A DNA stretch of 64,000 bases from an archaeon (GCA_030704845.1 JAUYKZ010000006.1:18046-82045), one strand, 5' to 3'. Positions 10,328 to 61,784 are shown, counted from the first letter of the stretch. Made by a program: numbers and translations. The notes: generated by a model from the sequence alone, not told the origin.

Positions 10328-10398
10328 AGGAATTAAAAAATGATTACAATAAAAATTCACAAATTTTTAAGCAACCATTGCTTCACTGAGGTGGAACA

Positions 10399-10596
10399 AT
10401 GATTATACCTATCCGATGTTTCAGTTGTGGAAAACCAGTAGGCCACCTTTGGGAAGAATTTAGCGAACGCCGTGAAAAAGGCGATGAAGTTAAAAAAGTT
10501 CTTGATGATTTTGGTTTAGAAAGATACTGTTGCAGATCTATAATGATGGGACATGTCGAATTAATTGATGTAGCTGCCGAATTTAGAAAAGCTTAG
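10399..10596 (+). CDS. rpoN: DNA-directed RNA polymerase subunit N (Rpo10)
   Basis: [15 protein letters not shown] ... [16 protein letters not shown] zinc-binding motif. Confidence 0.85.
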
Positions 10597-10645
10597 TTAC
10601 ATCGACTATTCTTTTTTTTCTATTTATTTGTTGAAATTTACTTTT
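10597..10645 (+). terminator. T-rich putative archaeal terminator after the ribosomal-protein operon
   Basis: TTCTTTTTTTTCTATTTATTTG run immediately after the rpoN stop. Confidence 0.3.
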
Positions 10646-10724
10646 AGGTTTTTTGTCACCAACTAGTGACCCCTTACGAAAACTTTATAAAGTAGTGCCT
10701 AAGAAGACAGTTAGGTAATTCAAA

Positions 10725-11955: not shown

Positions 11956-14229
11956 TTATCTTGATGATGTGATAAACGTTTTTCCGTCTTTCGTCCAGAT
12001 CAGTTTTCCAATAGCCATATCACGGAAAAGCCAGGATCTTTCCCCTTTAGTCTTACCAGTATCCGGATCGATTGGACGCACAAGTATGTTATCATTTATG
12101 TCAGATTGGCCAATAACACCAGGCATCAGCTCATTAAGTGGAGCTAGACCATACCACCCTTGAATAAGGTCAACTTCCGGGTATTTATCTATCAGAACAA
12201 CAAGATGTGGCCTAAGTTCACCAGTAGAATCTGGAGGAGGTACCGTATTACAAGAACTATAAAATACCTTTTTTACATCTCCTTCTGGGAAGTCTTTAAA
12301 ATCAATTCGATCTATCGGGTTATGGCTATCATCTTTAGTCTTTACTGATGGTGCATCACGCCAGATATAATCAGAATTTGCCCAATGATGTCCCGTGATT
12401 ACAAGATTTTTACTATTAGTTTTTGGTGGTAAATCTCTGCTGTTAAGAATAAGACATCCAGTGCCACTTTTCCTGCACCATTTTTCCATGCTTTGACCCG
12501 ATGATGCGGCGTCACCAGCAATAATAATCGTCGTGGTTGGGGAAGAACCATCTTTCGATTTAATCACTTTACCAAAAGATTCAGCAAATTTCTGTTCGCA
12601 ATCCTTGTCAACATAACAGGTGACAAATGAGTTTTGTCTTGATGATTCAAAGTAGTTTTCAACATATGCTGACTTTTCGATGTTATAAGTTTTATATCCA
12701 CTGTTAGAAGACCAATGTTGCATCTTTTCTTCATTGGTAACTGGATCTTTAGAAGTCACATCAAAACGACCAACATTCAGTTTAGCCAAATCTTTGTCTA
12801 CGGAGACATCACCATTGCCACTAACAATGACTTCGCTAATAACTTTTTGTTCGGTGGAAGAAATATCTTTCTTTTCGGTTGAACGATAAATTGCTTTTCC
12901 GTTATCAATATGATCAACCAGAACTTTATTAAAATAAGCAGAAGATGAGACAGAAACTTCATCTCCTTGTTTAATTCCCACGTAACGCAATTCTGTACGA
13001 TAACTCGGATCTCTAGTGTTACCATCACGATTAATTAAACAACTGAAACCAGTTTTACAGAAAGTATCTCTTTCTTTATTCTCAGAGTAGTATAATCGAT
13101 CACCTTTAAAATTAATTGTCGTGTCACCAAGTTGATCTTTCATTGACCCATCACCAATTAAAATAAATTCGTTCATAGCCGAAAGAAATTGATTCTTTGT
13201 CCTATCTCCCGGCTCAAGGACTGTTCCTTTAATCACCTGGGCAGTAGCTGTATATTCTTCAACACCAAAAGTATAATGTTTTGAAGATACTGACGATAAA
13301 CGTAAAAAGTCTTCACCTTCTGTACTTGCGACAATATCACCCTCATCTCCCCTAAAAAAACGAAAACTACCTTTGTAAAGAATCTTTCCAGAAACTGATT
13401 CCCGCGTCGGGGTATCTTTAGGGAGAACTTTTTTTGGTAAATTAACCTCAATACTTGCACACTTTCTGATATCTGTACCAGGACAATCAGCAAAAATAGC
13501 GACTTCTTTAACATCGGCATCAATTTGAAGAGTTCCCCCGGTGATCTGATAATTATTCTGTCCTTCAGTGATTAATGGATTTCCACCCGGACCTCTAGCT
13601 AATTTGAAATCCTCGGTTCCGCTAACTTCACCAAATGGAACTATTAATCTTCCATCTTTTAATACTCTAGAACCGAGAGGTACTTCATTAACTGTAAATT
13701 TAGTAGTTCTAATATTTTTATTAACATTATCCAGTCCAAGAATTTCTATTTTTTTTCCATCAAAAGAATTGATTTCCGCCCCTTCATCTTTAACACCATA
13801 ATTATAAAACCAAACTTCTTTGATTTTATAATTGTCATTTAAGATGGAAGTATCTTGCTGAAGTCTTGTACTTACATCTAGAAAAATTGGATTAAGTTTT
13901 CCGTTGATTAAAGAAGGATTAAAATTTACAGCGCGGACAAGATCTGGAGTTTGAAGTTTATTACTTACAGATGGATTAATATCCAAAGCAGAAGCTAATT
14001 TGTCAGTCGTGACAATAGACATGTCGCTTATTTTCCCTTGTTCAATAGCGGTAGCTAAATCTGTGGGTCCAAGATTATTCACATAATCAGGACTACTATA
14101 ATCTGCTTGCTGGTCTTCTGCTGGACAATCTGGTGGACATTCAGCTAAAGCTAACGGAAGTACAACTAACAAAACCATCATAACCAACAGTACTTTTCCT
14201 ACCTTACTTCCAGTAACCATCTTTTCCAT
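11956..14229 (-). CDS. Large Sec-secreted surface protein (757 aa), Cys-containing, no recognisable catalytic motif
   Basis: Signal peptide MEKMVTGSKVGKVLLVMMVLLVVLPLALA; start overlaps the stop of the upstream prepilin-like gene. Confidence 0.6.
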   Translation of the reverse strand: MEKMVTGSKVGKVLLVMMVLLVVLPLALAECPPDCPAEDQQADYSSPDYVNNLGPTDLATAIEQGKISDMSIVTTDKLASALDINPSVSNKLQTPDLVRAVNFNPSLINGKLNPIFLDVSTRLQQDTSILNDNYKIKEVWFYNYGVKDEGAEINSFDGKKIEILGLDNVNKNIRTTKFTVNEVPLGSRVLKDGRLIVPFGEVSGTEDFKLARGPGGNPLITEGQNNYQITGGTLQIDADVKEVAIFADCPGTDIRKCASIEVNLPKKVLPKDTPTRESVSGKILYKGSFRFFRGDEGDIVASTEGEDFLRLSSVSSKHYTFGVEEYTATAQVIKGTVLEPGDRTKNQFLSAMNEFILIGDGSMKDQLGDTTINFKGDRLYYSENKERDTFCKTGFSCLINRDGNTRDPSYRTELRYVGIKQGDEVSVSSSAYFNKVLVDHIDNGKAIYRSTEKKDISSTEQKVISEVIVSGNGDVSVDKDLAKLNVGRFDVTSKDPVTNEEKMQHWSSNSGYKTYNIEKSAYVENYFESSRQNSFVTCYVDKDCEQKFAESFGKVIKSKDGSSPTTTIIIAGDAASSGQSMEKWCRKSGTGCLILNSRDLPPKTNSKNLVITGHHWANSDYIWRDAPSVKTKDDSHNPIDRIDFKDFPEGDVKKVFYSSCNTVPPPDSTGELRPHLVVLIDKYPEVDLIQGWYGLAPLNELMPGVIGQSDINDNILVRPIDPDTGKTKGERSWLFRDMAIGKLIWTKDGKTFITSSR

Positions 14230-15530
14230 GTTCCGCCAAATTCATTTTTTACATTTACCCTTATTGAATGGGTTCCTAGATCATCTTTTGTTGGCGTAAA
14301 ATTAATAATTCCGGTTTCAGAATTGATATCAAATAAATAACTTTCATCGGTATATGTAATTCCACCACGATCATTAGAAATTGGAATTTTAAACACGTAC
14401 TCCTTACCTACTTCAGCAGTCTGTTGAGGAATGTTTTGAATTATTGGTAAATTGCCCGGATTTACATTAACATTTATCACAAAAGGAGCAATATTTTCAT
14501 TGTCAAAATTATCAGTTGCAATAACATAATAAAGATATTCGTCATTGGGAAAATTTTTTGTATCTAACGTAATAATTCCAGTTACCGGATTTATCGGAAG
14601 AGTTGATGGATCAGTGCTGAATGACACTTTATCATTTTCGCTTCTTGCTTCCAAATTATAAATTCCAGGCATGTCAATATTCCATTCGTCAGGTAAGATA
14701 ATTGAAACTGAAGGTTCTGGTTCAAAATCAGTAGGCGGAATTTCTATCGTTTCGGTAACCCAATCAAATCCTAAACCAAACCGATATAAAATTGGTTCTT
14801 CCTCTAACCCTTCATCGTAAACAAAATTTAGAACAACGTCTTTCCCCTCATCTCCGTACTGATTAAACCCGTAAATGAAATTATTCTCATATGCGGCCGA
14901 AGATAAAGGACTTATTTGGAATGTTTCCGGAGATTCTTCCTGCGTTTCAAGGTATCCTTGAACAAATTCATATTTACTGACAAAATCAAACGGAATCAAT
15001 GAAATGAATTGATTATAACCGCTTTCCGTTTCTCCAAGTTTTATTGTGACCGGATGTGATAAAGAAACCCTTGTTCCTGAACGTGTGAAAGCAATTTTAA
15101 TTTCGGGCTGGCCAGCATTAATAACATATCCTTTTTCTTTGAAAAAATTAAAATTATCGAGACATTCTTCATATATAGGGATAGCTCCCAAAGCAGTCTG
15201 GTCTGCAACAGTATTCAAAGATGGCAAGGAAGATTGTTTATTTTGGAAATAGTATGGAAGCGCAAAAACATTTTCTTTCTCAGTGAACGAAAGAAGAGAA
15301 AGGTCTAACGGATATTGGTTATATCCACCATTGTTAAGAGTTGTATATAACGATTTAGTTGTACTTTTTTCTAAACATTGTTCAATAAATGAAGTAACTG
15401 AAGCCGTTTCAACTTGATTAATAGATTTAGTATCACCAAAATTATCTTTAAGGAAGAAAAAAGATCCAGCTACAAGCAGAATAATTATACCTATAATTAT
15501 AAAAATCGTAACTTGTCCCCTTTTTTGCAT
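14199..15530 (-). CDS. Large protein with a class-III (prepilin/archaellin-like) signal peptide (443 aa), a putative pilin-like adhesin
   Basis: N-terminus MQKRG|QVTIFIIIGIIILLVAG: a basic residue-Gly cleavage-site-like motif followed by a hydrophobic helix; paralogous N-terminus in ORF 24676..27198. Confidence 0.55.
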   Translation of the reverse strand: MQKRGQVTIFIIIGIIILLVAGSFFFLKDNFGDTKSINQVETASVTSFIEQCLEKSTTKSLYTTLNNGGYNQYPLDLSLLSFTEKENVFALPYYFQNKQSSLPSLNTVADQTALGAIPIYEECLDNFNFFKEKGYVINAGQPEIKIAFTRSGTRVSLSHPVTIKLGETESGYNQFISLIPFDFVSKYEFVQGYLETQEESPETFQISPLSSAAYENNFIYGFNQYGDEGKDVVLNFVYDEGLEEEPILYRFGLGFDWVTETIEIPPTDFEPEPSVSIILPDEWNIDMPGIYNLEARSENDKVSFSTDPSTLPINPVTGIITLDTKNFPNDEYLYYVIATDNFDNENIAPFVINVNVNPGNLPIIQNIPQQTAEVGKEYVFKIPISNDRGGITYTDESYLFDINSETGIINFTPTKDDLGTHSIRVNVKNEFGGTWKRWLLEVR

Positions 15531-15549
15531 AATGTTAACACCTAACTAA

Positions 15550-15588
15550 AAAAAGGTCTAAAGGACATAGTCCTTTCTCTACCTTTTT
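15550..15588 (-). terminator. Nested palindrome followed by a T-run on the minus strand. Candidate terminator of the NT/HEPN pair and/or an operator before the prepilin-like gene.
   Basis: AAAGGAC-ATA-GTCCTTT inside AAAAAGGT...ACCTTTTT arms. Confidence 0.35.
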
Positions 15589-15645
15589 TGCATATGAAAT
15601 AAGTAAGAAATGGACGTATTTAAAGGTAACTATTCGAGAGGTATT

Positions 15646-16089
15646 TTATTTTAACATCTCTCTTAATTTTAAGTATTGTTTCTTTGTAAATTCAATAGCT
15701 TTTTGAGCATAGTTCTTCTCAAGCATTGTTCCATAATAAAGCATTCCATTCCTGAAATATCTTAATTGGTCTGCAAACTGAACATCACGTTCATTAAATC
15801 CTACGGTTCTCATATAAGCTACTTCTGCTTCGTGAGCTCCAAAGCCAGATGCATTATATCCATCTAAAAGCATTTTTGCTCTTATCAACTCCATTAAAAT
15901 ATCATAACATACTTTTATTAACATGTTTGCAGTATCATCAGAAACTTTTAATTTTTCTATTATCTTTAATAAATTGTTATAGCTATTTTCAGATTCTTCA
16001 ATTAGGAATTTTGCTCTTGATTTGTCAGGATATTGTTTCTTTACAACATTATCCTTAATAAACTCTTCAAAATGCCTTATTGCCTTCAT
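15646..16089 (-). CDS. HEPN-like protein paired with the upstream nucleotidyltransferase (putative toxin partner). The Rx4-6H motif is not canonical.
   Basis: 4-nt overlap with the NT gene; all-helical ~150 aa; synteny with MNT. Confidence 0.45.
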   Translation of the reverse strand: MKAIRHFEEFIKDNVVKKQYPDKSRAKFLIEESENSYNNLLKIIEKLKVSDDTANMLIKVCYDILMELIRAKMLLDGYNASGFGAHEAEVAYMRTVGFNERDVQFADQLRYFRNGMLYYGTMLEKNYAQKAIEFTKKQYLKLREMLK

Positions 16090-16634
16090 AATTCAACGCC
16101 ACCAACCAGAACAATACCATTGAAAAGGTTCTCTTTTAAGTGTTTATGTATTTTATTGAATGATTCATAGAAATTAATGTTTATTGTTCTTTCAAGTAAT
16201 TTTTCATAGACAGACACCACAAACAGTTTATCTTTTCTTCCGATTACTGCAATATCTATATCTGAGTTTATTAAGTCATCTCCTCTTGCATATGATCCAA
16301 ATAGTATTATAGTTGCTCCAGCAAATTCCTTTTCAAGAAAATCCGCTAGCCCAGATTCATAAATTTGTCGTAGGTTGTCTACTCGTTTTAACTGCATAAC
16401 TGTTTGAGAACTTCTATTTAACTCTATAGACCACCTTTTAGATGCTTTATCCTGCTGTACTTTTACAAAGTGCTCTTTTTCCAATGTTGGAATTGCCTTC
16501 ATAACAGCTGGTTGTGATACATCCAGAAACAGGGATATTTGTCTTTGGTTTAATGCTGTGCCAGCTTTTACAAATAATAATCTCAAAATCTCCTGTTGCA
16601 AGTTTGTTAACTTAAGTTTATATGTGTTTGCCAT
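16086..16634 (-). CDS. wHTH-fused minimal nucleotidyltransferase (MNT-type antitoxin-like)
   Basis: GSYARGDDLINSDIDIAV polymerase-beta-type NT motif; N-terminal winged-helix. Confidence 0.7.
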   Translation of the reverse strand: MANTYKLKLTNLQQEILRLLFVKAGTALNQRQISLFLDVSQPAVMKAIPTLEKEHFVKVQQDKASKRWSIELNRSSQTVMQLKRVDNLRQIYESGLADFLEKEFAGATIILFGSYARGDDLINSDIDIAVIGRKDKLFVVSVYEKLLERTININFYESFNKIHKHLKENLFNGIVLVGGVEL

Positions 16635-16682
16635 AGTTTAGATATGTAAACCCTTGTTAATATTTAAATGTTTTGGTTAGAT

Positions 16683-16748
16683 GGGCTCCGTAGAAAGAGT
16701 CTCGTTCAGAGCCCTGCCAAAAGCTGTTTAATCCTCGTCATGCAGGGC
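16683..16748. ncRNA. Candidate small structured RNA: two overlapping GC-rich hairpins in an otherwise AT-rich intergenic region
   Basis: GGGCTC-19nt-GAGCCC and GCCCTGC-24nt-GCAGGGC stems; local GC well above background. Confidence 0.2.
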
Positions 16749-16877
16749 GACCTTATTTAGTTTTACCAAGAATTGTTTTTATTTCTTTTTCAAACTTTCT
16801 TAGTGTCCGGAAGAATCTCATCTAGTTCATTTAAATAAGTATTCATTATATAAAGAAAGACCAGTGATTATTTGAAA

Positions 16878-17699
16878 TTATCCCTTAACAATTCTTGCCA
16901 CATATAACCTAGCCCAAGCAATTACTATCAGAAGGAAACCTAACCCAATCATAGTAAGAATCCATTTTGGCTGGTAAATAAATACTCTTTGGATAAGGTA
17001 ACTTATCACGTTAGCTGCAAGCATTACAACTAGCATCAGAAGAATTCCATACGATAACAAAGACCAATTTTTCTTCCAGTTATGGAAAGACATCCCAATA
17101 GATTCCCAAACCTTGTTACTTTTTGCAAAAGATTTGTATGCAAGGAACATGAAAACAAGGAATATAAACATGAAGAAAGCCGTAATCATGTTCGTATAAA
17201 ATAAACCTAACACTTGATTCTTAAAAGGAGTAAGGAATACGAACGGCGATTTAAGAGCAATTGATAGTAAAGAGTATAACACTCCGGTTACAATCATCAA
17301 CAATGAAATTAAATTCCATTTAAGGAAACTTCTCACGGAAGTATGTTTCTTCATGATAGTATCCCAGATAACCATTCTTGAGAATGAATATACGGCTAAC
17401 GCTAAGAGTATTATTAAAAGAGAACCGCCAACCATGATAAACAAGAAATTTCTTACATTATCCGAGAATGCTTTATTATAATCTTGTGAGCCGGAAAGAA
17501 GTGCTGTTTTAAGTTGTTCAACAGTTAAACCGCCACTGATATCGTAAGCTTTCGCAGTTAGCAATGAGCCGAAACTTAAGAATAACCCGATGATTAGCGC
17601 GAACGCTATAACGTCAGTTAAAAGAGTTTTCCAAAAAATGTGATCTAATTTAAACGAATCCAAGAATGTTTTCAGATGTCGATTTATTTTTAGTTTCAT
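16878..17699 (-). CDS. Polytopic integral membrane protein (about 6-7 TM)
   Basis: Multiple ~20-aa hydrophobic segments; 1-nt spacing from the upstream 604-aa gene. Confidence 0.55.
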   Translation of the reverse strand: MKLKINRHLKTFLDSFKLDHIFWKTLLTDVIAFALIIGLFLSFGSLLTAKAYDISGGLTVEQLKTALLSGSQDYNKAFSDNVRNFLFIMVGGSLLIILLALAVYSFSRMVIWDTIMKKHTSVRSFLKWNLISLLMIVTGVLYSLLSIALKSPFVFLTPFKNQVLGLFYTNMITAFFMFIFLVFMFLAYKSFAKSNKVWESIGMSFHNWKKNWSLLSYGILLMLVVMLAANVISYLIQRVFIYQPKWILTMIGLGFLLIVIAWARLYVARIVKG

Positions 17700-17700
17700 T

Positions 17701-19515
17701 TTATATATTCAACGTAACTCCGGGTGATGACGAAGTAATTGAAGGTAATCTTTGGGAACCTTCATATTCAATTTCTCCTTTCTCTATTTCTTTTATGTCA
17801 GCACAAATTTCTGAGATGTCACTTCCAACAGAGGATTTTATGTTATGTTTAAACCGGATACATGCTCGCGTGAAATCTTCCGGCCTATATTTAGCAACGA
17901 TAGCCCCATCTGTATCTCCGTTATTTAATTGAATTACATCCGTACCAGTTATGAATTCTCCCCGTTTATACACTGGAAGAGCTTGACCAGATCCTTCTAG
18001 GAATATGTTGAATGAAACAGCTACCCCGTTCTCGTCAACGAATGGAGTGAATTTCTCATCCTGCGGAGCAGTTACTCTCCAATGAATTTTATAAAATTTA
18101 CCTTTAACTGGTTCTTCATCATCTTCGTTCTTGTAACAGAACTCATCATTTTTACATACGAAATCTTCCGGACAAATAAATTCTTGATCTGATTCCTCGT
18201 CAGGATTTCTGTCGCAAAGAATAAATGATTGTCTTGGCGATTTTTCTACTTGAAGTGCGCCAACAGATTGGTACGTTCCAGATTGAGTTCTGAAAAATGC
18301 AGTAGATTGTCCAGGGGATTCTGCTCTTTGCCGATCGTCATTTAAACAAACCGCTGAACTAGCGAATGCAGGAAGATCTGCAAAAAAGTTAAGAGTTTCA
18401 TCATTTGCATCTATCAACCAGCCATTCTTAGTTGCATCTGGGAAAATTAAATTTGATAATGATCTATAACTTCCTAAAGCTTGCAATGCTCTAATTCCGC
18501 CGCCAGCAACTTGACCGAAACCACTTTGACCTTTAACAAGAGTTTGGTATCCTTCGCTACCAATTCCTTGCCACCATCGAGTTTTTACTGAAGCAGATTC
18601 CGCATCTTGTCTTGCTGCTTCTGCGCGTTTTTTAGTAGCTGCGTATTCTGATGATTGGATTGATTCTGCATTTTGTTGCACTTCTAGATCAGATTTTACT
18701 TCTCCAGTTTTTGTTTCTCTCCATAATTCACCTTCTTTTACATAGGTTTTTCCGCCAATTGTTGCTTGCCAACCATCGACTGCTGACGAGAATAATTCTT
18801 TGTTTTCTTTTAATTCTTGTTGGGTGTGGATAAATGAATCTGCTTTCTCTTCATAACCAACGGCAAGACCTTCATATAAAGTTGCTGCATCGTTGTCTGA
18901 TAGTTTGAAGTTTTTGCAGGTTGGGGTGTGGAAACAATTGGTTGCTTGTTTTATTTCTTCACGATTTAAACCTTTTTTAGGAACAGTAGTAAGCCCCATC
19001 TCTTCTGCGATATTGGCGACTGCTATCCTTTCGGCATTATTTTGTTGTTTTAATTCTTCATCTATTTTAGCTGCTTTGGCTTGAAGACCGTTTGCTTTCG
19101 CTTTTTGTTGTGCTGCTTGGAGATTTTTTAAAGCTGTTGGGTTCGCCTTTATTTTGTCTGTGTATTCTTTTTGTTTTGCTTGATCGACTTGCTTACTATT
19201 TTGATAGAATATCCCATTTTCATCAACACTAATGTCGTCAAATAATGTTTCAGTAAATTGTGCTGCAACTTGAACACCACTCGGAGTAGTTGAAGACGCA
19301 GAAGCTTTTAACCATTCATCGAAAGTAGCTGGAATGGGGTTTGCTGGGGGATTTTTCACTCTTTCTTCCTTTTCATTTAACAACAAGCTAAGGGGACTAC
19401 CCTTAATAACAGCCTCTCCTGTTTCACCGTTAGACTTAACCTCTTCTTGAGCGACTATCAACGTACTTAAAACTATTACAAAGAGTACAAACATCATCGC
19501 TTTTTTTAAATTCAT
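17701..19515 (-). CDS. Sec-secreted protein (604 aa) with an Ala/Gln/Lys-rich coiled-coil segment and a Cys/acidic-rich C-terminal module
   Basis: Signal peptide MNLKKAMMFVLFVIVLSTLIVA; CxxxxxC clusters near the C-terminus. Confidence 0.55.
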   Translation of the reverse strand: MNLKKAMMFVLFVIVLSTLIVAQEEVKSNGETGEAVIKGSPLSLLLNEKEERVKNPPANPIPATFDEWLKASASSTTPSGVQVAAQFTETLFDDISVDENGIFYQNSKQVDQAKQKEYTDKIKANPTALKNLQAAQQKAKANGLQAKAAKIDEELKQQNNAERIAVANIAEEMGLTTVPKKGLNREEIKQATNCFHTPTCKNFKLSDNDAATLYEGLAVGYEEKADSFIHTQQELKENKELFSSAVDGWQATIGGKTYVKEGELWRETKTGEVKSDLEVQQNAESIQSSEYAATKKRAEAARQDAESASVKTRWWQGIGSEGYQTLVKGQSGFGQVAGGGIRALQALGSYRSLSNLIFPDATKNGWLIDANDETLNFFADLPAFASSAVCLNDDRQRAESPGQSTAFFRTQSGTYQSVGALQVEKSPRQSFILCDRNPDEESDQEFICPEDFVCKNDEFCYKNEDDEEPVKGKFYKIHWRVTAPQDEKFTPFVDENGVAVSFNIFLEGSGQALPVYKRGEFITGTDVIQLNNGDTDGAIVAKYRPEDFTRACIRFKHNIKSSVGSDISEICADIKEIEKGEIEYEGSQRLPSITSSSPGVTLNI

Positions 19516-19829
19516 ACTATCTTAATCCCATTCTTTACTGCTTCTTTAACTATACCAATCTCTTTCTTTCGTTTATTAAATTCTTCAGGAGTTAAACATA
19601 CAAAATCAACAGGATATCCTAGATCCCACATCAGATATAATGGTGGAGATCTCTTTAAATGTCTTTTTCCTCGGAATTTTGATGAGACCATAATCAAATC
19701 TACGTCACTATCTTTTCTCACCTTTCCAGTTGCCCTTGAACCGAATAAGTACATTGAGCGTAAAGGGTACTCCTTAGAGATACTTTCTGCAAAACCTTTC
19801 AAAGATCCAATTAATTTTTTTGTATCCAT
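19512..19829 (-). CDS. Minimal nucleotidyltransferase (MNT antitoxin-like)
   Basis: LFGSRATGKVRKDSDVDLIMV motif. Confidence 0.75.
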   Translation of the reverse strand: MDTKKLIGSLKGFAESISKEYPLRSMYLFGSRATGKVRKDSDVDLIMVSSKFRGKRHLKRSPPLYLMWDLGYPVDFVCLTPEEFNKRKKEIGIVKEAVKNGIKIV

Positions 19830-20188
19830 TGTAAAATTATTTCCGTAAGTTTTAGGATATATTCAGCTTCTTTTTTATTTACTTTCTCAAAAGGTAATTC
19901 ATTACCTTCTGGATATCTTACTTCCACATATACTGGGTTTATTTCAGCGCAGGCTTTAATAATATTGTCTGGTGCTCCAACTTCCCGCGCTAATTTTACT
20001 AAATCATGTATTCTTAATAAATCTTTATTTTTCTGCAGATAATGATATTTAAGAGATTTTTCAACCGCTTGTTGACAAAGTAAGGCCGTAACATAGTAAT
20101 CACCAGAAATTAAACTATTCTTAGCACTTTTAAGATCTCGTTTTGCTTGCTTCAACCATACCTCAACATCATTTCTCATTATTGACAA
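19811..20188 (-). CDS. HEPN domain protein (toxin-like partner of the MNT)
   Basis: AQQAVEKSLK ... LRIHDLVKL HEPN signature; overlaps both neighbours. Confidence 0.7.
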   Translation of the reverse strand: MSIMRNDVEVWLKQAKRDLKSAKNSLISGDYYVTALLCQQAVEKSLKYHYLQKNKDLLRIHDLVKLAREVGAPDNIIKACAEINPVYVEVRYPEGNELPFEKVNKKEAEYILKLTEIILQWIQKN

Positions 20189-20754
20189 TATACCTCTACA
20201 ACCTTAAAAACGTTTCCATAAATCAGATGATCCTTCCGTATCTCTATCGCTAAAGCATTCTTCCTACGTAAACTTTCAGCAAATCCTTTCCAAGTGCTAA
20301 ATTCTATGTTTATTTCCCGTGGAAAGACTCGTTTTGCCTTGTTAATATCATCTTTCTTTCCGCCAATAACAATTAAATCCAAATCTGAGCTTTCTTTTTG
20401 TCTTCCCTTTGCAAAACTTCCGAAAACAATTATCGTCTCTGCAAAAGGAATCAAGCCTTTCATAATCAATGAAAATTCACTCTCCTTCAAAAGAAAAGAG
20501 GCTTTATAAGTCTCCACAATCTGAATCATTTGCTTCGCGAGAACACTTTTCCTATTAAGAACATATTTTTTGTTCCTTCCCTCTTTTGTGAAGAGAATAA
20601 TTTTATCTTTTACTAACCCATTCAATATTGTAAGAGCATTCTGCGGACTTGTTCCTACCGCCCTTGAGATTTCTCTGCCAGTGAAAGAAGCAGAGTAGTC
20701 CCTCGTGTAAAGCGCAAGAATGTCCATTTTTTTAGACATATGTCTATTTTTCAT
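20179..20754 (-). CDS. wHTH-fused nucleotidyltransferase (MNT-like)
   Basis: VFGSFAKGRQKESSDLDLIVIGG motif; N-terminal HTH. Confidence 0.7.
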   Translation of the reverse strand: MKNRHMSKKMDILALYTRDYSASFTGREISRAVGTSPQNALTILNGLVKDKIILFTKEGRNKKYVLNRKSVLAKQMIQIVETYKASFLLKESEFSLIMKGLIPFAETIIVFGSFAKGRQKESSDLDLIVIGGKKDDINKAKRVFPREINIEFSTWKGFAESLRRKNALAIEIRKDHLIYGNVFKVVEVYCQ

Positions 20755-21184
20755 TGATTTTCTTCCTCAATTGGATAATATCAAGCGCTTCTACAATAGC
20801 ATGACATTTAACTACAAATTTCTTCACTTCAGGTAAATTATCCAATTCTTGCTTCTCTAAATAATACTGAGCCCGTATTCTTTTATATTTAAGATTAGAC
20901 ATAAAGCTGTAATCATTTCCATTAAACTCATCAATTATTGTCATCAGCTCTATCGTGCAGTCATGGATTTCTGATTTAATCCCGGCTTTCATCAAGATGG
21001 AATATAACGCATTATAGCACGCATAGTACGCCATTATAACATCCCATTTTGATCCAGTTCCAGAAATCTGCTGTAAGGTTTCTTGCGCCTCACTAAAATA
21101 CTTCTCAGATAAATTCTCATTCTCTTCAACAAGTTCAATTCCTTTTTTCTGTTTTAAACACCAGTCAATCTTACTTCGCGTCAT
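20744..21184 (-). CDS. HEPN-like helical protein, first gene of the HEPN-NT-HEPN-NT tetrad
   Basis: SEIHDCTIELM region; size and synteny; 11-nt overlap with the NT gene. Confidence 0.45.
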   Translation of the reverse strand: MTRSKIDWCLKQKKGIELVEENENLSEKYFSEAQETLQQISGTGSKWDVIMAYYACYNALYSILMKAGIKSEIHDCTIELMTIIDEFNGNDYSFMSNLKYKRIRAQYYLEKQELDNLPEVKKFVVKCHAIVEALDIIQLRKKINEK

Positions 21185-21278
21185 TTTTTATACCTAAGTA
21201 GTTTTCTGTAATTGGGATATTTAAGATATTTCTGTCCAGATATGTCGGACAAATGTCCCTTTTTCTTAGACACAATTC

Positions 21279-24200
21279 TTATCCTCCAGTTAACTCATTT
21301 AAATCTATATTCTCAGCCATGTCACAATATGGAAGTTTAGTTGCATCGGGCGTTTGTTCAATAGCTCCAATTACCGTATCTGTAATATCTACTAAGATGT
21401 TAAGACCGGTAGTAATTTTACACAGTGGAATAGCTGCTGATGTTCCAGCCGGATCAAAACAAAGATCTGCACAAGCGGCCATTTCTATCCATTTAATAAC
21501 TCCAACTAGAGATGTGAACGCTGCTTTGATAGCTTTTCCGATATATGAAATACTTCCCAGAGGAGTGAAGTCAAATAATGGGCCGTAAACGAATTCACAC
21601 ATTTGGATGTCATATAAAGCATCACATCCTTCAAATGTAGTAAGACCGGATGGAACTTCACGACCATAACATACAATTTTTCTACACATAACTTGTCTTG
21701 CTTTTTCTGCTTGATATAATAATCCTGGGACACATAAACCCAAACCAGAAGTATAAAGATTTTCATATAATGATGTTGCTGGAATACCCAACAAACCTCT
21801 TCCAGAAAGAAGATTATAAGTTTCTAGAATATTGTCTTGGAATTGACCATATGCACCCAAATTTCCTGGATCTGGACTACAGCTTAAAATATCGATAGGA
21901 ATCTGGATATATTCTACAAATTCGAATGCCGTTTTCTGGCCAACTTCTAAGGTTAAACACTGACCACGTAAGGCCGTTCCAACACCAACTGCTCCACCAC
22001 CAGTCTTCTCTACAACTGTTGCAACTCCAACTAAATTACCGCTTACCAAATCAATAAATCTACTAGTCTTATCAATTATTGAAAGAATGTTTCCAATATA
22101 TCTAGCCCATTCAAGCGCAGTGTTAATATAACTCAATGCATCAAGGAATTCAAACCAATCTTCATTTTTCAATGCCCTTACTTTCTTCGCTAAATTTTCA
22201 TCCAATGCACCAATAGTACTAAATCCAAAAGGAACTTCAACTTGCACTTCCTGTAATTCAGGAGAAGCAATAGCATCTTTACCAACTTTAGAAAATACTC
22301 TTAATTGACATGAATAAGACACAACAGCTTCCGCAAATCCGCCTTCAGTAGCAAACATTTCTCTGCCATTGAATGGAGAAAATTCAAGAATCATTGTAGC
22401 CGTAGGTTCAATCTCACCGTCAGGATAATTTCCACCATATAATATAGTCCGGCTTACTTCAGGACCGCTAGAACTTTCGTTACCTTGATCAACAGGCGAA
22501 CAACCAACTAGATCTGCACGTAACATTTGCGCTTGCGGATGTCCGGCTCCGAATTTAAGTTCAACCGGCATTCTAGTATAAGTTAACTCGGTAGTATCTA
22601 AATCAATGAAATCTATTAAAGGACGTGGAGCTCTTTGAAGTTCCCAGTAATCAGGATTTTCTTCCGTAACTAATCCCAATAAATTAATTTTAAATTTCCC
22701 ATCTCTTCCAGAAACAACATTCTTAGATTCACCTTCCCAATCAATAGCCTTAGCTTCATTACCAGCAGTATCATGAACAAGAATCTCAACATCCGCACTT
22801 GGATCTGGACCGGATTTCATTGGAGTTGTTTCAATGGAACATACCCATCTTGCTTCGGAACGGACACAACTTTCTTCATTGAAAACTTGCCATCCGTCAC
22901 CTAATCCTCTACTAGCACTTCCTTCAGGGAAAGATAATTCTGAATCAAGAACGATATCTTTTGTATTTACTAATATATTAAGTCCGTTTGTTTCTCTTAT
23001 AGTGAAATCAATTCTTAACCGATCATTACTTTGGAAGAAATCTTTCACGCCAATTAAATCTGAAACACCAAATAATTCTACTTTCTCTATTACAGGTGCG
23101 GAAGCATCGGAGAATAATTGTACGTCCGGTGAACTTCCTTTATTACCCACGTTATCTTCAAACACAGATAACCCAGTTATCGCAACATCTGTACTTCCAG
23201 CAAAACTGACATCCCAGTAACAGAACAATTTTCCGTCTTCCGTTTCTGAACATTCATCAGGAGCTTCGGCTGCTCCCATGCCAAATGCACTTAACCTTGC
23301 TCTAATTCCGTTCTCGGTGATTCCTGCTCCTTGATCTCTAACTAATAAGATAATTCTATTTTCTCCTTTCATGATGAAACTCTTGTCATCAAATATTTGT
23401 TCAGTACCCATGAATTCAATCACGGGAGGAGAAGTATCTACCACAAAATCACTTCTGCCAATTCTTTGTTCAACCGAATTGCCAAACCTATCGGTTACAG
23501 TTACGGTTAATTCTAAACTGGTAGATGGCTGAATCTCAACATTCTCCCAAGTACAATGATATAAACCTAGTTCTTTATCATCTTCATAACAATTTGCGGG
23601 AGTTCTATCTAAATCAACTTGAATCGATGATGCAGTTACGCTAGCTAAATTATTTTCTTTAACATCAAGAGTAATATCCGTTTTGATAGAAAATTCGCCG
23701 ATAAATTTTCCTAAATCAGTGAAATTAAGAGTTCCGCCAAGAATAACCGGGTCAATGAAATCGCTTCTGAAAGAACCGATTGCAGGATGTTCAGTAATAT
23801 GTCCTAAACGATCTTCAGCAGTTATCTTTATTCTTTTAACTCCTTCCCCAGCAAGTTCCGCTTGAAGTTTTCCACCAAATTCAGCAATATTACTATATTT
23901 AAATTCTTTCTGACCAACTTCTAATCTTGAACCACCAATGGTTTGTAAGATTTGGTTAGTATCGGCGTCAATAATTTCAATCTTGCTTATGCCCACTGAA
24001 GGAATGTCTCCCCGGGTATCTTTAACAAGGAAATCAAGTTCAACTTCACCAAGAAGATTTTGTTTTAATTTAGTTATCTCAACTGTTGGAGCAGTTCCAT
24101 CTGCTCTAATTACATCTGCGTTTTTTACAGTTGCTGGATTTAAAACTTCATTTAAGTAATGATAAACAACTTCAAACAAGTATGCATCTTCACGAACACC

Positions 24201-24515
24201 ATCCGTTAAAGGACTGATATATTCACAAGAAACTCCTTGCGGTGTACTTGCGCAAGCATTGAATGGTGATTCTTTACTTCCAACTTTCATTACAACATTC
24301 TTTGGATCAATATTTTCTTCAGTTGCCGAAGTAATTAAAGCGTTAACTTTCCAAGTGTCCCCATCAGCGTCAATAAATTTGTCAATGTTAGCTTCTCCAG
24401 AATTTTTAGTTATGCTAACAAGTGGAACAGCCATAACACTTGCACTGTAAACAGGTAGAGTTACAAATAAGAAAATCATCCACAAACCTACCACTTGCAA
24501 CGCTCTTTTTTCCAT
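21279..24515 (-). CDS. Giant Sec-secreted protein (1078 aa), function unknown
   Basis: Signal peptide MEKRALQVVGLWMIFLFVTLPVYSASVMA; long uninterrupted ORF. Confidence 0.6.
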   Translation of the reverse strand: MEKRALQVVGLWMIFLFVTLPVYSASVMAVPLVSITKNSGEANIDKFIDADGDTWKVNALITSATEENIDPKNVVMKVGSKESPFNACASTPQGVSCEYISPLTDGVREDAYLFEVVYHYLNEVLNPATVKNADVIRADGTAPTVEITKLKQNLLGEVELDFLVKDTRGDIPSVGISKIEIIDADTNQILQTIGGSRLEVGQKEFKYSNIAEFGGKLQAELAGEGVKRIKITAEDRLGHITEHPAIGSFRSDFIDPVILGGTLNFTDLGKFIGEFSIKTDITLDVKENNLASVTASSIQVDLDRTPANCYEDDKELGLYHCTWENVEIQPSTSLELTVTVTDRFGNSVEQRIGRSDFVVDTSPPVIEFMGTEQIFDDKSFIMKGENRIILLVRDQGAGITENGIRARLSAFGMGAAEAPDECSETEDGKLFCYWDVSFAGSTDVAITGLSVFEDNVGNKGSSPDVQLFSDASAPVIEKVELFGVSDLIGVKDFFQSNDRLRIDFTIRETNGLNILVNTKDIVLDSELSFPEGSASRGLGDGWQVFNEESCVRSEARWVCSIETTPMKSGPDPSADVEILVHDTAGNEAKAIDWEGESKNVVSGRDGKFKINLLGLVTEENPDYWELQRAPRPLIDFIDLDTTELTYTRMPVELKFGAGHPQAQMLRADLVGCSPVDQGNESSSGPEVSRTILYGGNYPDGEIEPTATMILEFSPFNGREMFATEGGFAEAVVSYSCQLRVFSKVGKDAIASPELQEVQVEVPFGFSTIGALDENLAKKVRALKNEDWFEFLDALSYINTALEWARYIGNILSIIDKTSRFIDLVSGNLVGVATVVEKTGGGAVGVGTALRGQCLTLEVGQKTAFEFVEYIQIPIDILSCSPDPGNLGAYGQFQDNILETYNLLSGRGLLGIPATSLYENLYTSGLGLCVPGLLYQAEKARQVMCRKIVCYGREVPSGLTTFEGCDALYDIQMCEFVYGPLFDFTPLGSISYIGKAIKAAFTSLVGVIKWIEMAACADLCFDPAGTSAAIPLCKITTGLNILVDITDTVIGAIEQTPDATKLPYCDMAENIDLNELTGG

Positions 24516-24544
24516 ATTTTCTAACCTACTAATGTTAATCTATT

Positions 24545-24647
24545 TATATACTAAAAGGAATTAGGTTTCTAGACCTAATTCCTTTGGTATGTATAAAGGG
24601 ATAGTTTTCCCTTTTACATACAAAAGGCTTCTGCCTTTTAGTATATA
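24545..24647. repeat. 103-nt element bounded by perfect 14-nt inverted repeats (TATATACTAAAAGG / CCTTTTAGTATATA), containing a perfect 13-bp-arm palindrome and a second imperfect palindrome
   Basis: Read directly; terminal motif TATACTAAA shared with the 31.4-kb and 49.5-kb repeat elements. Confidence 0.4.
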
Positions 24648-24649
24648 CC

Positions 24650-24686
24650 AAAATTCATAGATTTCTGTTCGGAATCTATGAATTTT
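24650..24686 (-). terminator. Perfect 14-bp-arm hairpin overlapping the stop of the 840-aa gene
   Basis: AAAATTCATAGATT-9nt-AATCTATGAATTTT followed by T-run. Confidence 0.4.
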
Positions 24687-27198
24687 TAGTATATGTTGGT
24701 TCTAACGATGCTCTAACTTCCGGTCTTCTTGAAACTTCACCAAGCAATCCTGAAATTTGCATATCTTCAATGATTCTTCCCCCAGCCATAACTGAAGTGT
24801 CTTTACATACATCAAATAAACATCCCACACCAGGAATACAACTGTATCCGCCACATTCTTTCATTGGCACTTTAACTTGTTCTGGAATTGAAACAATATC
24901 TTGCACAGGGACATATAAAGTAATCTCATCCGCAGTATATAATTGTTCAGGAGTTATCGTTAAATAAGTAGCTGGTGTTTCCCAGGCAATATTACCCGTA
25001 ACAAAACCTTCGGAAACACTTTCATCAAGAGTGAATTTTTCTTCTTTATCATAACCTAGGATTGAATAAGTTGAACTTCTAGTTTCAGCTGGAATTCTTA
25101 CTTGCTGAGATGTAGTTGCGAATCCACTTATTTTATACACACCAGGAACTAACTGGACATTACTTCCAGCAGAACCTTTAACAGCTACCGAAGCAACAAA
25201 CTCATTACTTATAACTTCACCATGGAATCCGCTCACTCTTTCAAGAGTTAAAAGAACTTCTTCATCATCTCTTAAGTCAACAGATCTGTCATTCAAGTAA
25301 TAGTCATTATATTTAGTGATACTTTGATTTACTTCAAGAGATATAATTGGGGTTCCGGCACCAAGAACACTAGAACCGCTATCAAAGAAACATTGTTCTG
25401 CTCCTTGCGAACAAGATATATCACTGTAAGGAATAAAACTTACCCCATCGCCTGCTTGAGTTGGACCTGATCGGGTATATTTACATTCTAAAGCACGGAT
25501 ACATTTCTGGACTGGTTTTTTCTTAATATTAACATTAATCGTTTTGATTCTATCCATTTCTATAACTTTTTCAGTTGGTGCATTTGCAACCGCATATCCC
25601 AGAACAGCTGGCTGATCTTGATAATTATATGTGTCTATCGGATAGAAATTTGATAAGTAACCTAAAGCAGCAAAATTAATAACTCCACCATATACCGCAG
25701 GATATTTACTTTCTAATTCTCCACTTTGATCAGTTAACCCCATTTCACAACTTTGATCATCCGGAATTGTAAATCCGATTTTAACAGCTTCAATTGGTTC
25801 TTTAGTGAAAGAATCAACTACGACCGTTTTAAGCAATTCGGTATCTCGATGTGCTTCATCACAAGATATAGGAGATATTCCTTTTGGATAAACTTCCCGA
25901 ACAGATTCATCCTCAGCAGGTCTGTTGTTTCTAATATTAGATTCTAAGGCCATAACAAATCTGTAACCTTCGCCATTAAATGCAGCTTCATCTTTAATTG
26001 TAACAAGGACAGGGTAACTGACATCATAATGAGTTTCATATTGTTGATTTCCAAATGATAAGATTTCATAATTAATGTAAATACTGTTTGGTTTTATGAT
26101 TCCATCTTCGCTGTTTGTTTTAAAGTAAGGATTCCAGCCAAAATAATCAAATGAAACGCCCACATCATCAGCTCCACTTAATGGAAGAACCATATTATCT
26201 ACAACATGCTGAGCTAACCGTTCAGATTCAGGGAATGTTGAATAATAAAATCTTTCACTACCTAAAAATCTAAGCATTGGGACATAAGAGGTTAACAATC
26301 CTTTATATTGTTGTTCAACTGTATCTTCCTGCCAAGATAAAGAAGAAAATAATTGGTATCCGGTATCTGAAGTTGGAGGAAGCGCTTGAGCATCTTTCCT
26401 AGAATAAACTGAAATCAATTCCAATCCTTGCCGTTCCAAGAAATTAAATTCTTTTTCAGCATTTGCGATTTGTTCAGCAACTTCATAATAATGTCTTAAA
26501 TCTAACGGCACTCTTACAAAAAATACATTTAAATCAGTTGAAGCATCTCCTATTGAAACACTAACATCCATGTCCATTCGGAAATCAACCAAACCATCGC
26601 CGATAGTAACTTTAATCGTTTTATCTGGGTCTTGCACAACGTCAAATCCTTGAGAAGTAAATGGAGCGTAATCGTTTAGGCAACCATCAATTCTTTCATC
26701 AATAAACCTTTCAAGTTGAGATTCCATGCTTAACGCCGGATCATCTGCTTTTTTAATTTCTGGTTTTAAAGATGAGATTGCAATATTTTTAGCAGAATTT
26801 GGAGGCGTGTTATAATGCCAGTAAGGAACTTTAAGAGGTTCAAGATTTAATCCATCGCTATCTGTTGGATTAGTTGAAGAAAATTCCCCAGCCAACTCTG
26901 GATAGATATAACCGCCTTGATCTCCTAGAATAAGTAGCCCTCGTTTTGCAAGTTGTCCAACACATTGTTCGGTATAAGATTGAACCGGTCTAAATTCTTC
27001 GGGAACACTACTTAAAATTGGCAAACCTTCAGAAGTAAATTTTTGTTGGATAGAGCCCGATGTAAAATAAAGTATCCCTGCGAATGTAAAAAGAATAACG
27101 ATTCCGATAATAATAAATATCGTGATCTGCCCTTTCTTTGAAGAGAAGCCAAACCCTCCGGTATTACATCTACTAATACTACCTCTTTTTATCACCAT
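24676..27198 (-). CDS. Giant protein (840 aa) with a class-III prepilin-like signal peptide, paralogous at the N-terminus to ORF 14199..15530
   Basis: ...SSKKG|QITIFIIIGIVILFTFAG; palindromic TTTATAAA ~27 nt upstream of the ATG. Confidence 0.6.
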   Translation of the reverse strand: MVIKRGSISRCNTGGFGFSSKKGQITIFIIIGIVILFTFAGILYFTSGSIQQKFTSEGLPILSSVPEEFRPVQSYTEQCVGQLAKRGLLILGDQGGYIYPELAGEFSSTNPTDSDGLNLEPLKVPYWHYNTPPNSAKNIAISSLKPEIKKADDPALSMESQLERFIDERIDGCLNDYAPFTSQGFDVVQDPDKTIKVTIGDGLVDFRMDMDVSVSIGDASTDLNVFFVRVPLDLRHYYEVAEQIANAEKEFNFLERQGLELISVYSRKDAQALPPTSDTGYQLFSSLSWQEDTVEQQYKGLLTSYVPMLRFLGSERFYYSTFPESERLAQHVVDNMVLPLSGADDVGVSFDYFGWNPYFKTNSEDGIIKPNSIYINYEILSFGNQQYETHYDVSYPVLVTIKDEAAFNGEGYRFVMALESNIRNNRPAEDESVREVYPKGISPISCDEAHRDTELLKTVVVDSFTKEPIEAVKIGFTIPDDQSCEMGLTDQSGELESKYPAVYGGVINFAALGYLSNFYPIDTYNYQDQPAVLGYAVANAPTEKVIEMDRIKTINVNIKKKPVQKCIRALECKYTRSGPTQAGDGVSFIPYSDISCSQGAEQCFFDSGSSVLGAGTPIISLEVNQSITKYNDYYLNDRSVDLRDDEEVLLTLERVSGFHGEVISNEFVASVAVKGSAGSNVQLVPGVYKISGFATTSQQVRIPAETRSSTYSILGYDKEEKFTLDESVSEGFVTGNIAWETPATYLTITPEQLYTADEITLYVPVQDIVSIPEQVKVPMKECGGYSCIPGVGCLFDVCKDTSVMAGGRIIEDMQISGLLGEVSRRPEVRASLEPTYTKNS

Positions 27199-27298
27199 GG
27201 TATTGACTTTAGAAAGAGAAGATGATTTATAAAGCTTGTGGGAAGTGGAGTCTTGATTACAATCAAATTAACCATATTATAAAATCATTTTTGAAAGA

Positions 27299-37800: not shown

Positions 37801-37960
37801 GATGTGTTAAATGTACATATGGCTCATTACTATGATGTGATAGCGTATAAGATTAAACCCATACTCCATCATGTTCAACCATTGCCGCCAGGATTTGGCC
37901 ATTCCTGAAGGCACCTATTGCCCGTAACCTCTTTTGAGAGATTTTCGGGAACATTAAATG

Positions 37961-38054
37961 TGGACCCGACGGGATTTGAACCCGTGGCCTCCTGCTTTCT
38001 ATGCTTGTTAAACAAGCGTGCAAGGCAGGCGCTCTCCCCCTGAGCTACGGGCCC
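37961..38054 (-). tRNA. tRNA-Ala(UGC) with a 21-nt intron at canonical position 37/38; CCA not encoded
   Basis: GGGCCCGTAGCTCAGGGGGAGAGCGCCTGCCTTGCA[CGCTTGTTTAACAAGCATAGA]AGCAGGAGGCCACGGGTTCAAATCCCGTCGGGTCCA. Confidence 0.8.
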
Positions 38055-61448: not shown

Positions 61449-61784
61449 ATGTTGATTTTATCATGCATGGATAATTCATTAGATGTTTACAAACTATTTT
61501 TTGGATCTCTAGCTAACCCAAACAGGTTACAAATTCTTACGATACTGCGTACTGGTGCAATGAATGTTACAGAAATCTGTAAGAAGTTGAAATTTGAACA
61601 AACCATGGTATCGCATAATCTTAAACGATTAGAAACTTGCGGGATGGTTTTTGCCGAACAAAGAGGAAAAAACAGGTATTATTCCTTAAATAATAAAACG
61701 ATTAAACCGTTAATGGAGTTAATTGATAAACATACATACCAATATTGTGAGCATGTTGTTAGTGAAAAAAAGTTCAATAAGTGA
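61449..61784 (+). CDS. ArsR/SmtB family metal-responsive transcriptional regulator
   Basis: [30 protein letters not shown]; directly upstream of the P-type ATPase. Confidence 0.75.

Follow-up and report, generated by a model that had tools for sequence, protein, structure and literature searches.

Few two-gene systems of archaea are as abundant, and few are as poorly understood, as modules in which a nucleotidyltransferase (NT) is encoded next to a HEPN protein; the abundance of HEPN and minimal nucleotidyltransferase (MNT) genes in these organisms has been known since 2009–2013. We know of no experimental function for the class formed by a classical PF05168 HEPN and an MNT. HEPN-MNT modules are divided into class I and class II, and class I alone has a worked-out mechanism (PMC11586414). 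For MNT-associated HEPNs, a conserved C-terminal Tyr was proposed as a nucleotidylation site, some members lacking the Rx4-6H motif scored as toxins in a genome-scale screen, and HEPN domains have precedent as NT substrate-binding domains (PMC3710099). Furthermore, a DPANN-wide conserved MNT-HEPN gene has been described ‘in house-keeping context’ (PMC6393860), and PDC-M05 is an unvalidated, archaea-enriched NT + HEPN candidate of probable archaeal origin (PMC12988326). Here, we analyse three NT-HEPN pairs located in a 64,000-nt stretch of archaeal DNA (GCA_030704845.1 JAUYKZ010000006.1:18046-82045), referred to as the window in the following. With a probability of roughly 0.6, we consider them three accessory toxin-antitoxin (TA) or defence-candidate modules that reside in two variable slots of a DPANN surface-protein cluster, a defence or addiction reading being favoured over dedicated regulation of the locus.

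Module A consists of the HEPN-like protein H1 and of wNT1, an NT with a winged helix-turn-helix (wHTH), module B of a PF05168 HEPN and an MNT, and module C of a second wHTH-NT, wNT2, and the HEPN-like protein H2. Modules A and B together form a tetrad of overlapping genes. An iterated hidden Markov model (HMM) search recovered these three pairs only as NT/HEPN genes in the window, and none of the six open reading frames (ORFs) is a chance ORF, as each has hundreds of conserved homologues. A fourth NT candidate at 61449-61784 (+) was rejected, as it proved to be a 111-aa ArsR-type wHTH protein that matched via the wHTH part of the iterated NT HMM. For comparison, one sample was built on H1 (80 species-representative genomes with an H1 relative, yielding 73 evaluable loci) and one on H2 (80 metagenome contigs with an H2 relative). 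Because loci chosen through H1 are a biased sample of the slot, the neighbouring surface protein S1078 was itself used as query, which provided six homologues on long contigs (L172, L173, L174, L175, L176 and the P0250 contig).

The surface-protein cluster runs in the order MetRS, S840, S1078, variable slot, S604-like giant gene, TM273, S443 and S757 in many Woese- and Nanoarchaeota genomes. Apart from the slot content, the order MetRS-S840-S1078-S604-TM273-S443-S757 is common to the window (11956-29389, minus strand) and L172 (2108-17254) at 35-61% identity (S840 61%, S1078 56%, S604 39%, TM273 35%, S443 46%, S757 41%). The MetRS-S840-S1078 portion is kept in many Woese- and Nanoarchaeota genomes, S604 homologues of 516-1868 aa lie downstream of the slot in many loci, and TM273 homologues follow S604-like genes in L004, L005, L007, L049 and L172. 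What varies is the content of the slot. It is empty in L176 and in the P0250 contig, holds a DUF1016 nuclease and three Schlafen/AlbA_2 ATPases in L173 (11742-17348), NT/HEPN-like genes together with DUF1016 in L174 (12286-13311), and a class I MNT→HepT pair (PF01934) that overlaps the downstream giant gene by 4 nt in L175. In L172, the slot contains an H1-extension stub and an orphan orthologue of the module B MNT (10397-10717; 65% identical) that has DVDL replaced by DVNL, shares an ATGA with the S604-like gene and has no HEPN partner; it appears to be the decaying remnant of a tetrad. The complete tetrad recurs in L002, L036 and L063, with proteins 62-69% identical to those of the window. 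Among the closest relatives of the window, L166 and L170 have an unrelated pair, MNT (135 aa)→HEPN (153-168 aa), in place of the second module, together with one more pair of wNT2-like and H2-like genes; in L008 and L009, NT/HEPN pairs are doubled. The second slot behaves similarly: in L172 there is nothing between TM273 and S443, and the flanks of module C align to that 88-nt gap.

Thus, the sequence-only reading, which had suggested an addiction or defence island, is borne out insofar as the slot between the S1078 and S604 homologues is variable, being empty or filled with an orphan MNT, with DUF1016/Schlafen-like genes, with MntA-HepT or with one to three NT/HEPN pairs. The comparison of homologous surface loci that it proposed gave a divided answer, with the tetrad present in three other genomes and other clusters carrying an empty or different slot. 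Because gain, loss, swapping and decay all occur at the slot, we regard the modules as accessory cargo of a hotspot that is used repeatedly, and not as a constant functional component of the surface operon. Divergence of H1/wNT was not significantly correlated with that of S1078 (rho 0.39, p 0.15; rho -0.02, p 0.95; n=15). As side observations, the DUF1016 protein is of the YhcG PD-(D/E)XK type and is accompanied by up to three SLFN_AlbA_2 + HATPase_c_4 proteins, which looks like defence-island content, and in L004 the giant gene is likewise preceded by a similar AlbA_2/HATPase protein. In L166 (1112-4213), which is closest to the window (H1 90% identical), three pairs follow S1078 in tandem, namely wNT2-like→H2-like, H1→wNT1 and MNT135→HEPN168, and a 29-aa ORF with ...KIRWC at its end looks like a second copy of the H1 N-terminus.

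The same comparison bears on the alternative, also raised in the sequence-only reading, that the modules are dedicated regulators of the surface cluster, the wHTH controlling transcription and the HEPN affecting mRNA stability of the giant genes. The pairs do overlap and are co-oriented with flanking surface genes, NT/HEPN pairs follow TM273-like genes in L004, L005 and the window, and the surface proteins are less conserved than those of the modules. In addition, 14 of 23 H1→wNT loci have an S1078 homologue just before the pair, an association that also weighs against the accessory reading. However, the cluster exists without the modules in L172, L176 and the P0250 contig and with unrelated cargo elsewhere, and the majority of H2 cassettes and of wNT→H1 pairs lie far from such clusters. 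Moreover, the only demonstrated operator precedes a module’s own genes, and the palindromes between S1078 and H1 are relic codons (see below). Because the cluster stays intact without the modules, regulation of surface genes is the least supported role for them and we hold it to be quite improbable; the claim that they act on this operon and its mRNAs was not supported by the comparison. One may also ask whether the tetrad is what remains of once-active modules, now neutral and about to be lost. The frame-shifted remnant of an H1 extension in the window, as well as the deletion of three genes and the DxD to DxN change in the surviving MNT of L172, could be taken this way. However, all six window ORFs are intact and keep the invariant residues and the NT catalytic motifs, and the conservation of the tetrad proteins in L002, L036 and L063 likewise makes decay of the window modules highly improbable.

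Further support for discrete modules comes from the pairing, which is obligate for each HEPN-like family and its NT. Of the 73 evaluable loci, 69 have a wHTH-NT next to H1; three of the remaining four are at contig ends. The two genes overlap by 4-14 nt and occur in both orders (46 wNT→H1, 23 H1→wNT). In the H2-based sample, the order wNT2→H2 is fixed in 74 of 80 contigs, four more being at contig edges, and 67 of the 74 have the two genes overlapping by 4 nt. NTs of the wNT2 family are nearly always exactly 182 aa long, the surroundings of H2 cassettes vary, and tandem duplicates occur. Among individual PADLOC models, those of candidate PDC-M05 matched both genes of module C (wNT2 and PDC-M05A, 3.5e-14; H2 and PDC-M05B, 3.2e-5), the wNT2 match extending over the full length. 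wNT1 of module A likewise matched PDC-M05A over its full length (1.8e-15), while H1 gave no match to any M05B model. In module B, the HEPN scores above the PF05168 gathering cut-off and its gene adjoins that of a minimal NT in the same orientation. This makes the module a classical PF05168 HEPN + MNT dyad, of class II in so far as RX4HXY is lacking.

All three NTs carry the motif GS-x9-10-DxD, which is intact in each and at least 90% conserved in both wHTH-NT families. wNT1 is recognized by the Pfam models Polbeta (1.4e-7) and NTP_transf_2 (6.5e-7), and its residues G112-S113...D124-x-D126 are invariant in the family. wNT2 matches NTP_transf_2 (3.1e-11) and MarR (3.6e-5), with G113-S114...D125-x-D127 conserved in a family of 74% median identity. 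The MNT, whose motif reads GS-x10-DVD, matches NTP_transf_2 (1.6e-12), the PADLOC model PDC-S09 and, below threshold, MntA (4.2e-8), and its orthologues in L002, L036, L063 and L172 are 63-66% identical. In general, the NTs reached the NCBIfam MntA model only below its cut-off (27-33 bits vs 60). The proposal that two of the three NTs have an N-terminal winged helix is upheld by Pfam, family profile and alignment. In wNT1 the wHTH is weak when the protein is searched alone, and about half of 27 family members match wHTH Pfams; the family profile aligns with BlaI/ArsR/AspA structures over residues 5-89 and with MntA (5yep_A, 1.8e-7), and the domain is also clear from the alignment to the 182-aa wNT2.

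The HEPN side required different kinds of evidence. The PF05168 HEPN of module B is unambiguous (Pfam E=7.9e-28; 97.4 bits vs a gathering cut-off of 22), has TT1696, ST0689 and TM0613 as relatives in the PDB and, according to the subfamily alignment, possesses invariant H61, R91-Y92-P93 and QQxxEK. For H1 and H2, which the sequence-only reading had called HEPN-like while naming them its weakest calls, single-sequence Pfam searches failed: H1 alone reached PF05168 at E=0.068, even though 19 of 46 members of its family match this model, and H2 had no Pfam match. Neither single sequence, nor the H2 profile, found anything meaningful in the PDB, the sole sequence-profile match being that of the H1 profile to AF0298 (E=0.022). 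In contrast, the predicted folds point clearly to HEPN. The AlphaFold model of H1 (predicted local distance difference test, pLDDT, 95.6) retrieved HEPN proteins as all of its top 21 Foldseek matches in the PDB, led by 2hsb (E 2.8e-4) and followed by sacsin HEPN, TT1696, 4nqf and HepT. The model of H2 (pLDDT 95.8) matched 2hsb/AF0298 best (TM-score 0.75, root-mean-square deviation 2.4 Å), then TT1696 (TM-score 0.66) and the HEPN toxins 7ae8 and 8xdj. Structure comparison thus recognizes the four-helix up-down HEPN core in both models, which have their secondary-structure elements in the same order. Hence, H1 and H2 are HEPN folds according to confident models, and all six domain assignments hold, those of H1 and H2 on fold instead of HMM evidence. 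The relationship between H1 and H2 is based on a common fold, a common partner family and the merging of both families by HMM iteration; a direct link at the sequence level was rejected (BLASTP E=0.006 over 35 residues; hhalign probability only 11.8%).

In terms of residues, a conserved His is present in all three HEPN-type proteins and an Arg at -4 to -6 is absent. H1 has I69 in the Arg position of Rx4-6H, followed by H74-D-C, and H2 has no Arg 4-6 residues before H86-E-A. The invariant residues of H1 include E72, H74, C76, K99, Q106, Y107 and Y108, and those of H2 are H86, E87, E89, R110, R113, N114, G115, Y118 and Y119. The R-x-HDL signature that had been noted for the PF05168 HEPN is indeed there (R59-I-H61-D-L); yet it is not a canonical Rx4-6H, its Arg is replaced by K, Q or D in more distant subfamily members, and a role as RNase site is not supported for it. 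None of the three proteins matches PF01934. A conserved Tyr motif is found in each, reading RYP in the PF05168 HEPN, QYY in H1 and LYY in H2.

Several of these properties weigh against a TA or defence role. Alignments revealed neither the Rx4-6H endoRNase motif nor RX4HXY in any of the three HEPN-type proteins, so that all three fall outside class I HEPN-MNT. Because these motifs comprise the RNase residues and the AMPylated Tyr of characterised type VII systems, toxicity and Tyr nucleotidylation are extrapolations here. Both pairs of the tetrad have the HEPN gene 5' of the NT gene, whereas canonical dyads almost always have the MNT 5'. The modules are unusually conserved for TA genes: at 55% identity of S1078, H1 still reaches 90% and wNT1 86%, and the H2 family has a mean identity of ~70%, with only 29 clusters at 50% identity below E 1e-30. 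Finally, no relatives of the H1 and H2 families were found on viral contigs in IMG/VR, and no mobile-element genes were found flanking the modules. The main rival reading is that wHTH-NT and HEPN-like partner form a domesticated two-subunit enzyme or regulator, that is, a non-toxic heteromeric nucleotidyltransferase analogous to kanamycin NT or GlnE-type enzymes, with the HEPN as substrate-binding or regulatory subunit and the wHTH tying enzyme level to a signal, in a housekeeping or regulatory function. H1 and H2 keep another invariant polar set despite lacking the Arg of Rx4-6H, the families are narrow and highly conserved with a near-invariant promoter, and precedents exist both for HEPN as NT substrate-binding domain (PMC3710099) and for a housekeeping MNT-HEPN gene in DPANN (PMC6393860). 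However, the closest syntenic relative, L172, is without either pair in the homologous region examined, H2 cassettes are found in variable contexts and sometimes as tandem duplicates, and H1/wNT pairs are doubled, order-flipped and exchanged at the slot, which are features of accessory modules rather than core enzymes. On balance, we therefore judge a domesticated enzyme unlikely and prefer accessory TA or defence-candidate modules.

As to their control, module C has a promoter and operator of its own. A TATA-like box, TTTAAATA, is located at 16661-16668, and a near-palindrome, GTTTAcATATcTAAAC, palindromic at 14 of 16 positions, occupies 16636-16651 and ends 1 nt before the ATG. In wNT2→H2 cassettes, the last ~45 nt upstream are conserved in 39 independent contigs. 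The promoter of this family (L086-L165) comprises a BRE-like AAccgAAA and the TATA box TATATAAA, which is invariant at -30 to -23, followed at -18 to -1 by the dyad AGTtAAT-N4-ATTAACT, whose outer positions are 85-100% complementary across the 39 loci. Relative to this consensus, GTTTAcATATcTAAAC represents a swap in both arms. Perfect inverted repeats of at least 7 bp occurred in 19 of 54 unique wNT2 upstream sequences, whereas shuffling gave an expectation of 2.5 and a control segment had such repeats in 1 of 54. The ATG of the wNT2 cassettes is at the expected transcription start, and the cassette mRNAs would therefore be of the leaderless type. wNT→H1 modules with a promoter of their own follow the same design but use other half-sites, present in three repeats and covarying between loci (GAGTAAA/TTTACTC, GAGTATA/TATACTC, GATGAA/TTCATC). 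Taken together, there is good comparative evidence that the wHTH-NT acts as putative autorepressor of its own promoter.

For the tetrad no such evidence was found. The suggestion of autoregulation by the winged helices is supported for module C, with its TATA box and dyad in 39 loci, but not for the tetrad, where the upstream palindromes are relic codons. In the 94-nt gap that precedes the tetrad lies a frame-shifted, 30-codon remnant of an extension at the N-terminus of H1. L002, L063, L041 and L170 have this extension in frame, and part of it is kept in L172, although the slot of L172 contains no wHTH-NT. The inverted repeat GGACAttTGTCC...GGACA, read at one point as a wNT1 operator with a covarying counterpart AGACAtaTGTCT in L012, was rejected as it corresponds to Gly-Gln codons of the extension. 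The relic ORF would encode VSKKKGHLSDISGQKYLKYPNYRKLLRYKK followed by a TGA stop that overlaps the ATG of H1 (ATGA), and a TTAAATAT box near 21220 is a putative promoter. The AT-rich gap between TM273 and wNT2 also contains a GC-rich inverted repeat at 16680-16760 (-), composed of GGGCTCTG...CGGAGCCC and CGCCCTGC...GCAGGGC; a non-coding RNA at this site was rejected, as folding was not significant (z = -1.3) and Rfam gave no match at E<=1.

The best-supported scenario is modelled on type VII HepT/MntA, from which toxicity, nucleotidylation and a defence role are carried over by analogy. The NT would bind its HEPN partner, keep it harmless and probably nucleotidylate a conserved Tyr, the candidates being Y107/Y108 in H1, Y118/Y119 in H2 and Y92 in the PF05168 HEPN. 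HEPN that becomes free could arrest growth through RNA binding or non-canonical cleavage, which would result in addiction or abortive infection behaviour. In modules A and C, the wHTH may in addition allow the NT, or the complex, to repress its own promoter.

The arrangement of the genes is summarized in Table 1. All six ORFs of the tetrad and the third pair are where the sequence-only reading had put them, on the minus strand and with the overlaps it described. H1 and wNT1 overlap by 11 nt (20744/20754), and the HEPN and MNT genes of module B by 19 nt (19811/19829). wNT1 and the PF05168 HEPN overlap by 10 nt (20179/20188) if the TTG start is used; more probably, translation starts at the ATG, giving a 1-nt TAATG overlap. 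The stop codon of the MNT overlaps the start of S604 by ATGA (19512/19515), as had been proposed, and module C does have the opposite gene order, NT then HEPN, again with an ATGA overlap (16086/16089).

Table 1. Coordinates of the NT-HEPN genes, their control region and neighbouring genes, counted from the first nucleotide of the window
Feature	Position	Strand	Remark
Relic small ORF	21181..21273	-	GTG start, 30 codons, VSKKKGHLSDISGQ...
H1, 146-aa HEPN-fold protein, UPF0332/AF0298-like	20744..21184	-	module A
wNT1, 191-aa wHTH + minimal nucleotidyltransferase	20179..20754	-	module A
Classical PF05168 HEPN, 125 aa from TTG / more likely 122 aa from ATG at 20179	19811..20188	-	module B
MNT, 105-aa minimal nucleotidyltransferase	19512..19829	-	module B
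S604, secreted 604-aa protein, context gene	17701..19515	-	N-terminal hydrophobic segment
TM273, membrane protein with six transmembrane (TM) segments, context gene	16878..17699	-	hydropathy
Promoter/operator of third pair	16636..16668	-	TATA-like box + near-palindrome
wNT2, 182-aa MarR-like wHTH + minimal nucleotidyltransferase	16086..16634	-	module C
H2, 147-aa HEPN-fold protein, wNT2 partner	15646..16089	-	module C
S1078, secreted 1078-aa protein, upstream edge of variable slot	21279..24515	-	signal-like N-terminus

Given these overlaps, co-transcription of the tetrad with the genes for the 604-aa and 273-aa proteins is probable. The modules are thus embedded, co-oriented and overlapping, in a cluster of secreted and membrane protein genes as originally described, the large flanking proteins all having an N-terminal signal or anchor and TM273 six TM segments according to hydropathy. 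Such co-transcription would result from where the modules landed and does not indicate that they serve the surface genes. S840 (24676-27198, -) and S443 (14199-15530, -; He_PIG Ig domain, E 2e-6) share the N-terminus [KR]G-Q-[IV]-T-I-F-I-I-I-G-I, which is reminiscent of class III (type IV pilin-like) signal peptides of archaea; the cluster may encode pilus-like adhesins. S1078, which has 36 homologues, shows a weak Ig-like match (Big_3_3, E=0.0035), and the large proteins of the cluster have no confident Pfam domain.

The host is a DPANN-type archaeon. The G+C content of the window is low (~33-37%), a complete archaeal 16S-tRNAAla-23S operon is located at 34.9-39.6 kb, and relatives of the module proteins are almost all from DPANN lineages, namely Woese-, Pace-, Nano-, Aenigmat- and Nanohalo-archaeota. 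The proteins analysed here are identical to entries of an NCBI metagenome-assembled genome with the locus tags Q8Q01_01485 to _01525. Between 16S and 23S, the spacer tRNA-Ala(UGC) (37960-38054, -) has a length of 95 nt, which suggests an intron.

A more far-reaching interpretation, which we put forward only tentatively and think doubtful, is that the S1078/S604-type junction is a dedicated landing slot for diverse TA or defence cassettes, from PDC-M05-like pairs and HEPN-MNT of both classes to DUF1016 nucleases and Schlafen-like ATPases, that would be co-transcribed with surface genes and often translationally coupled to them by ATGA overlaps, the wHTH-NT/UPF0332-like pairs working via a non-RNase HEPN. 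If so, expression of immunity or addiction would be tied to that of likely virus-receptor or host-attachment proteins. Irrespective of this, archaea with small genomes keep a spot for variable cargo in a fast-evolving cluster of surface-protein genes. With its relatives, the locus offers natural variants in which one slot is filled, empty or exchanged, a promoter/operator amenable to testing and candidate acceptor tyrosines, for PF05168 and UPF0332-like versions that lack the motif explaining the characterised type VII systems.

How do the modules compare with described systems? Like type VII HepT/MntA of Shewanella (SO_3166/3165), Aphanizomenon and Legionella, they combine adjacent, overlapping genes for an NT (GSX10DXD) and an all-helical HEPN, and the NT profiles match MntA structures just as the HEPN models match structures of HepT and HEPN toxins. 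They differ in that the HEPNs have no RX4HXY and belong to PF05168 and UPF0332-like lineages rather than DUF86/PF01934, that two of the NTs have an N-terminal wHTH, and that the HEPN gene precedes the NT gene in the tetrad. PDC-M05 has the same two-gene architecture and the same archaeal/DPANN bias, with both wHTH-NTs matching M05A and H2 matching M05B; H1, however, matches no M05B model and its family is found in both gene orders. Among the classical PF05168 HEPN + MNT dyads of the TT1696, ST0689 and TM0613 type, the HEPN of module B is a strong member that adjoins a 105-aa MNT, but the order in the window, L002, L036 and L063 is HEPN→MNT, while the literature reports the MNT as usually first. 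The best structural match of both H1 and H2 is UPF0332/AF0298 (2hsb), with which they share a central His and a downstream R...Y. The Arg of R-x4-H in AF0298 is replaced by Ile in H1 and is missing in H2, and none of the sequence profiles tried identifies H2 as UPF0332 or HEPN. The NEQ050 fusion cls.004259 (Makarova et al. 2019), compared here by description only, resembles the modules in combining NT and HEPN in DPANN, in its unusual conservation and in its non-island context; it is a single fused protein, whereas the genes described here are separate. Longer relatives of H2, considered as fused NT-HEPN links to NEQ050, were rejected, as they show no consistent fusion, being joined to a kinase, a HAD hydrolase or an epimerase in what look like artefacts of gene calling or read-through. 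Thus, the components belong to catalogued families (PF05168 HEPN-MNT, PDC-M05, UPF0332) and the modules are of a known kind, not a new system; what appears to be new in detail is the wNT2/H2 operator, the recurrent tetrad and the presence of a TA/defence slot in a DPANN surface-protein cluster.

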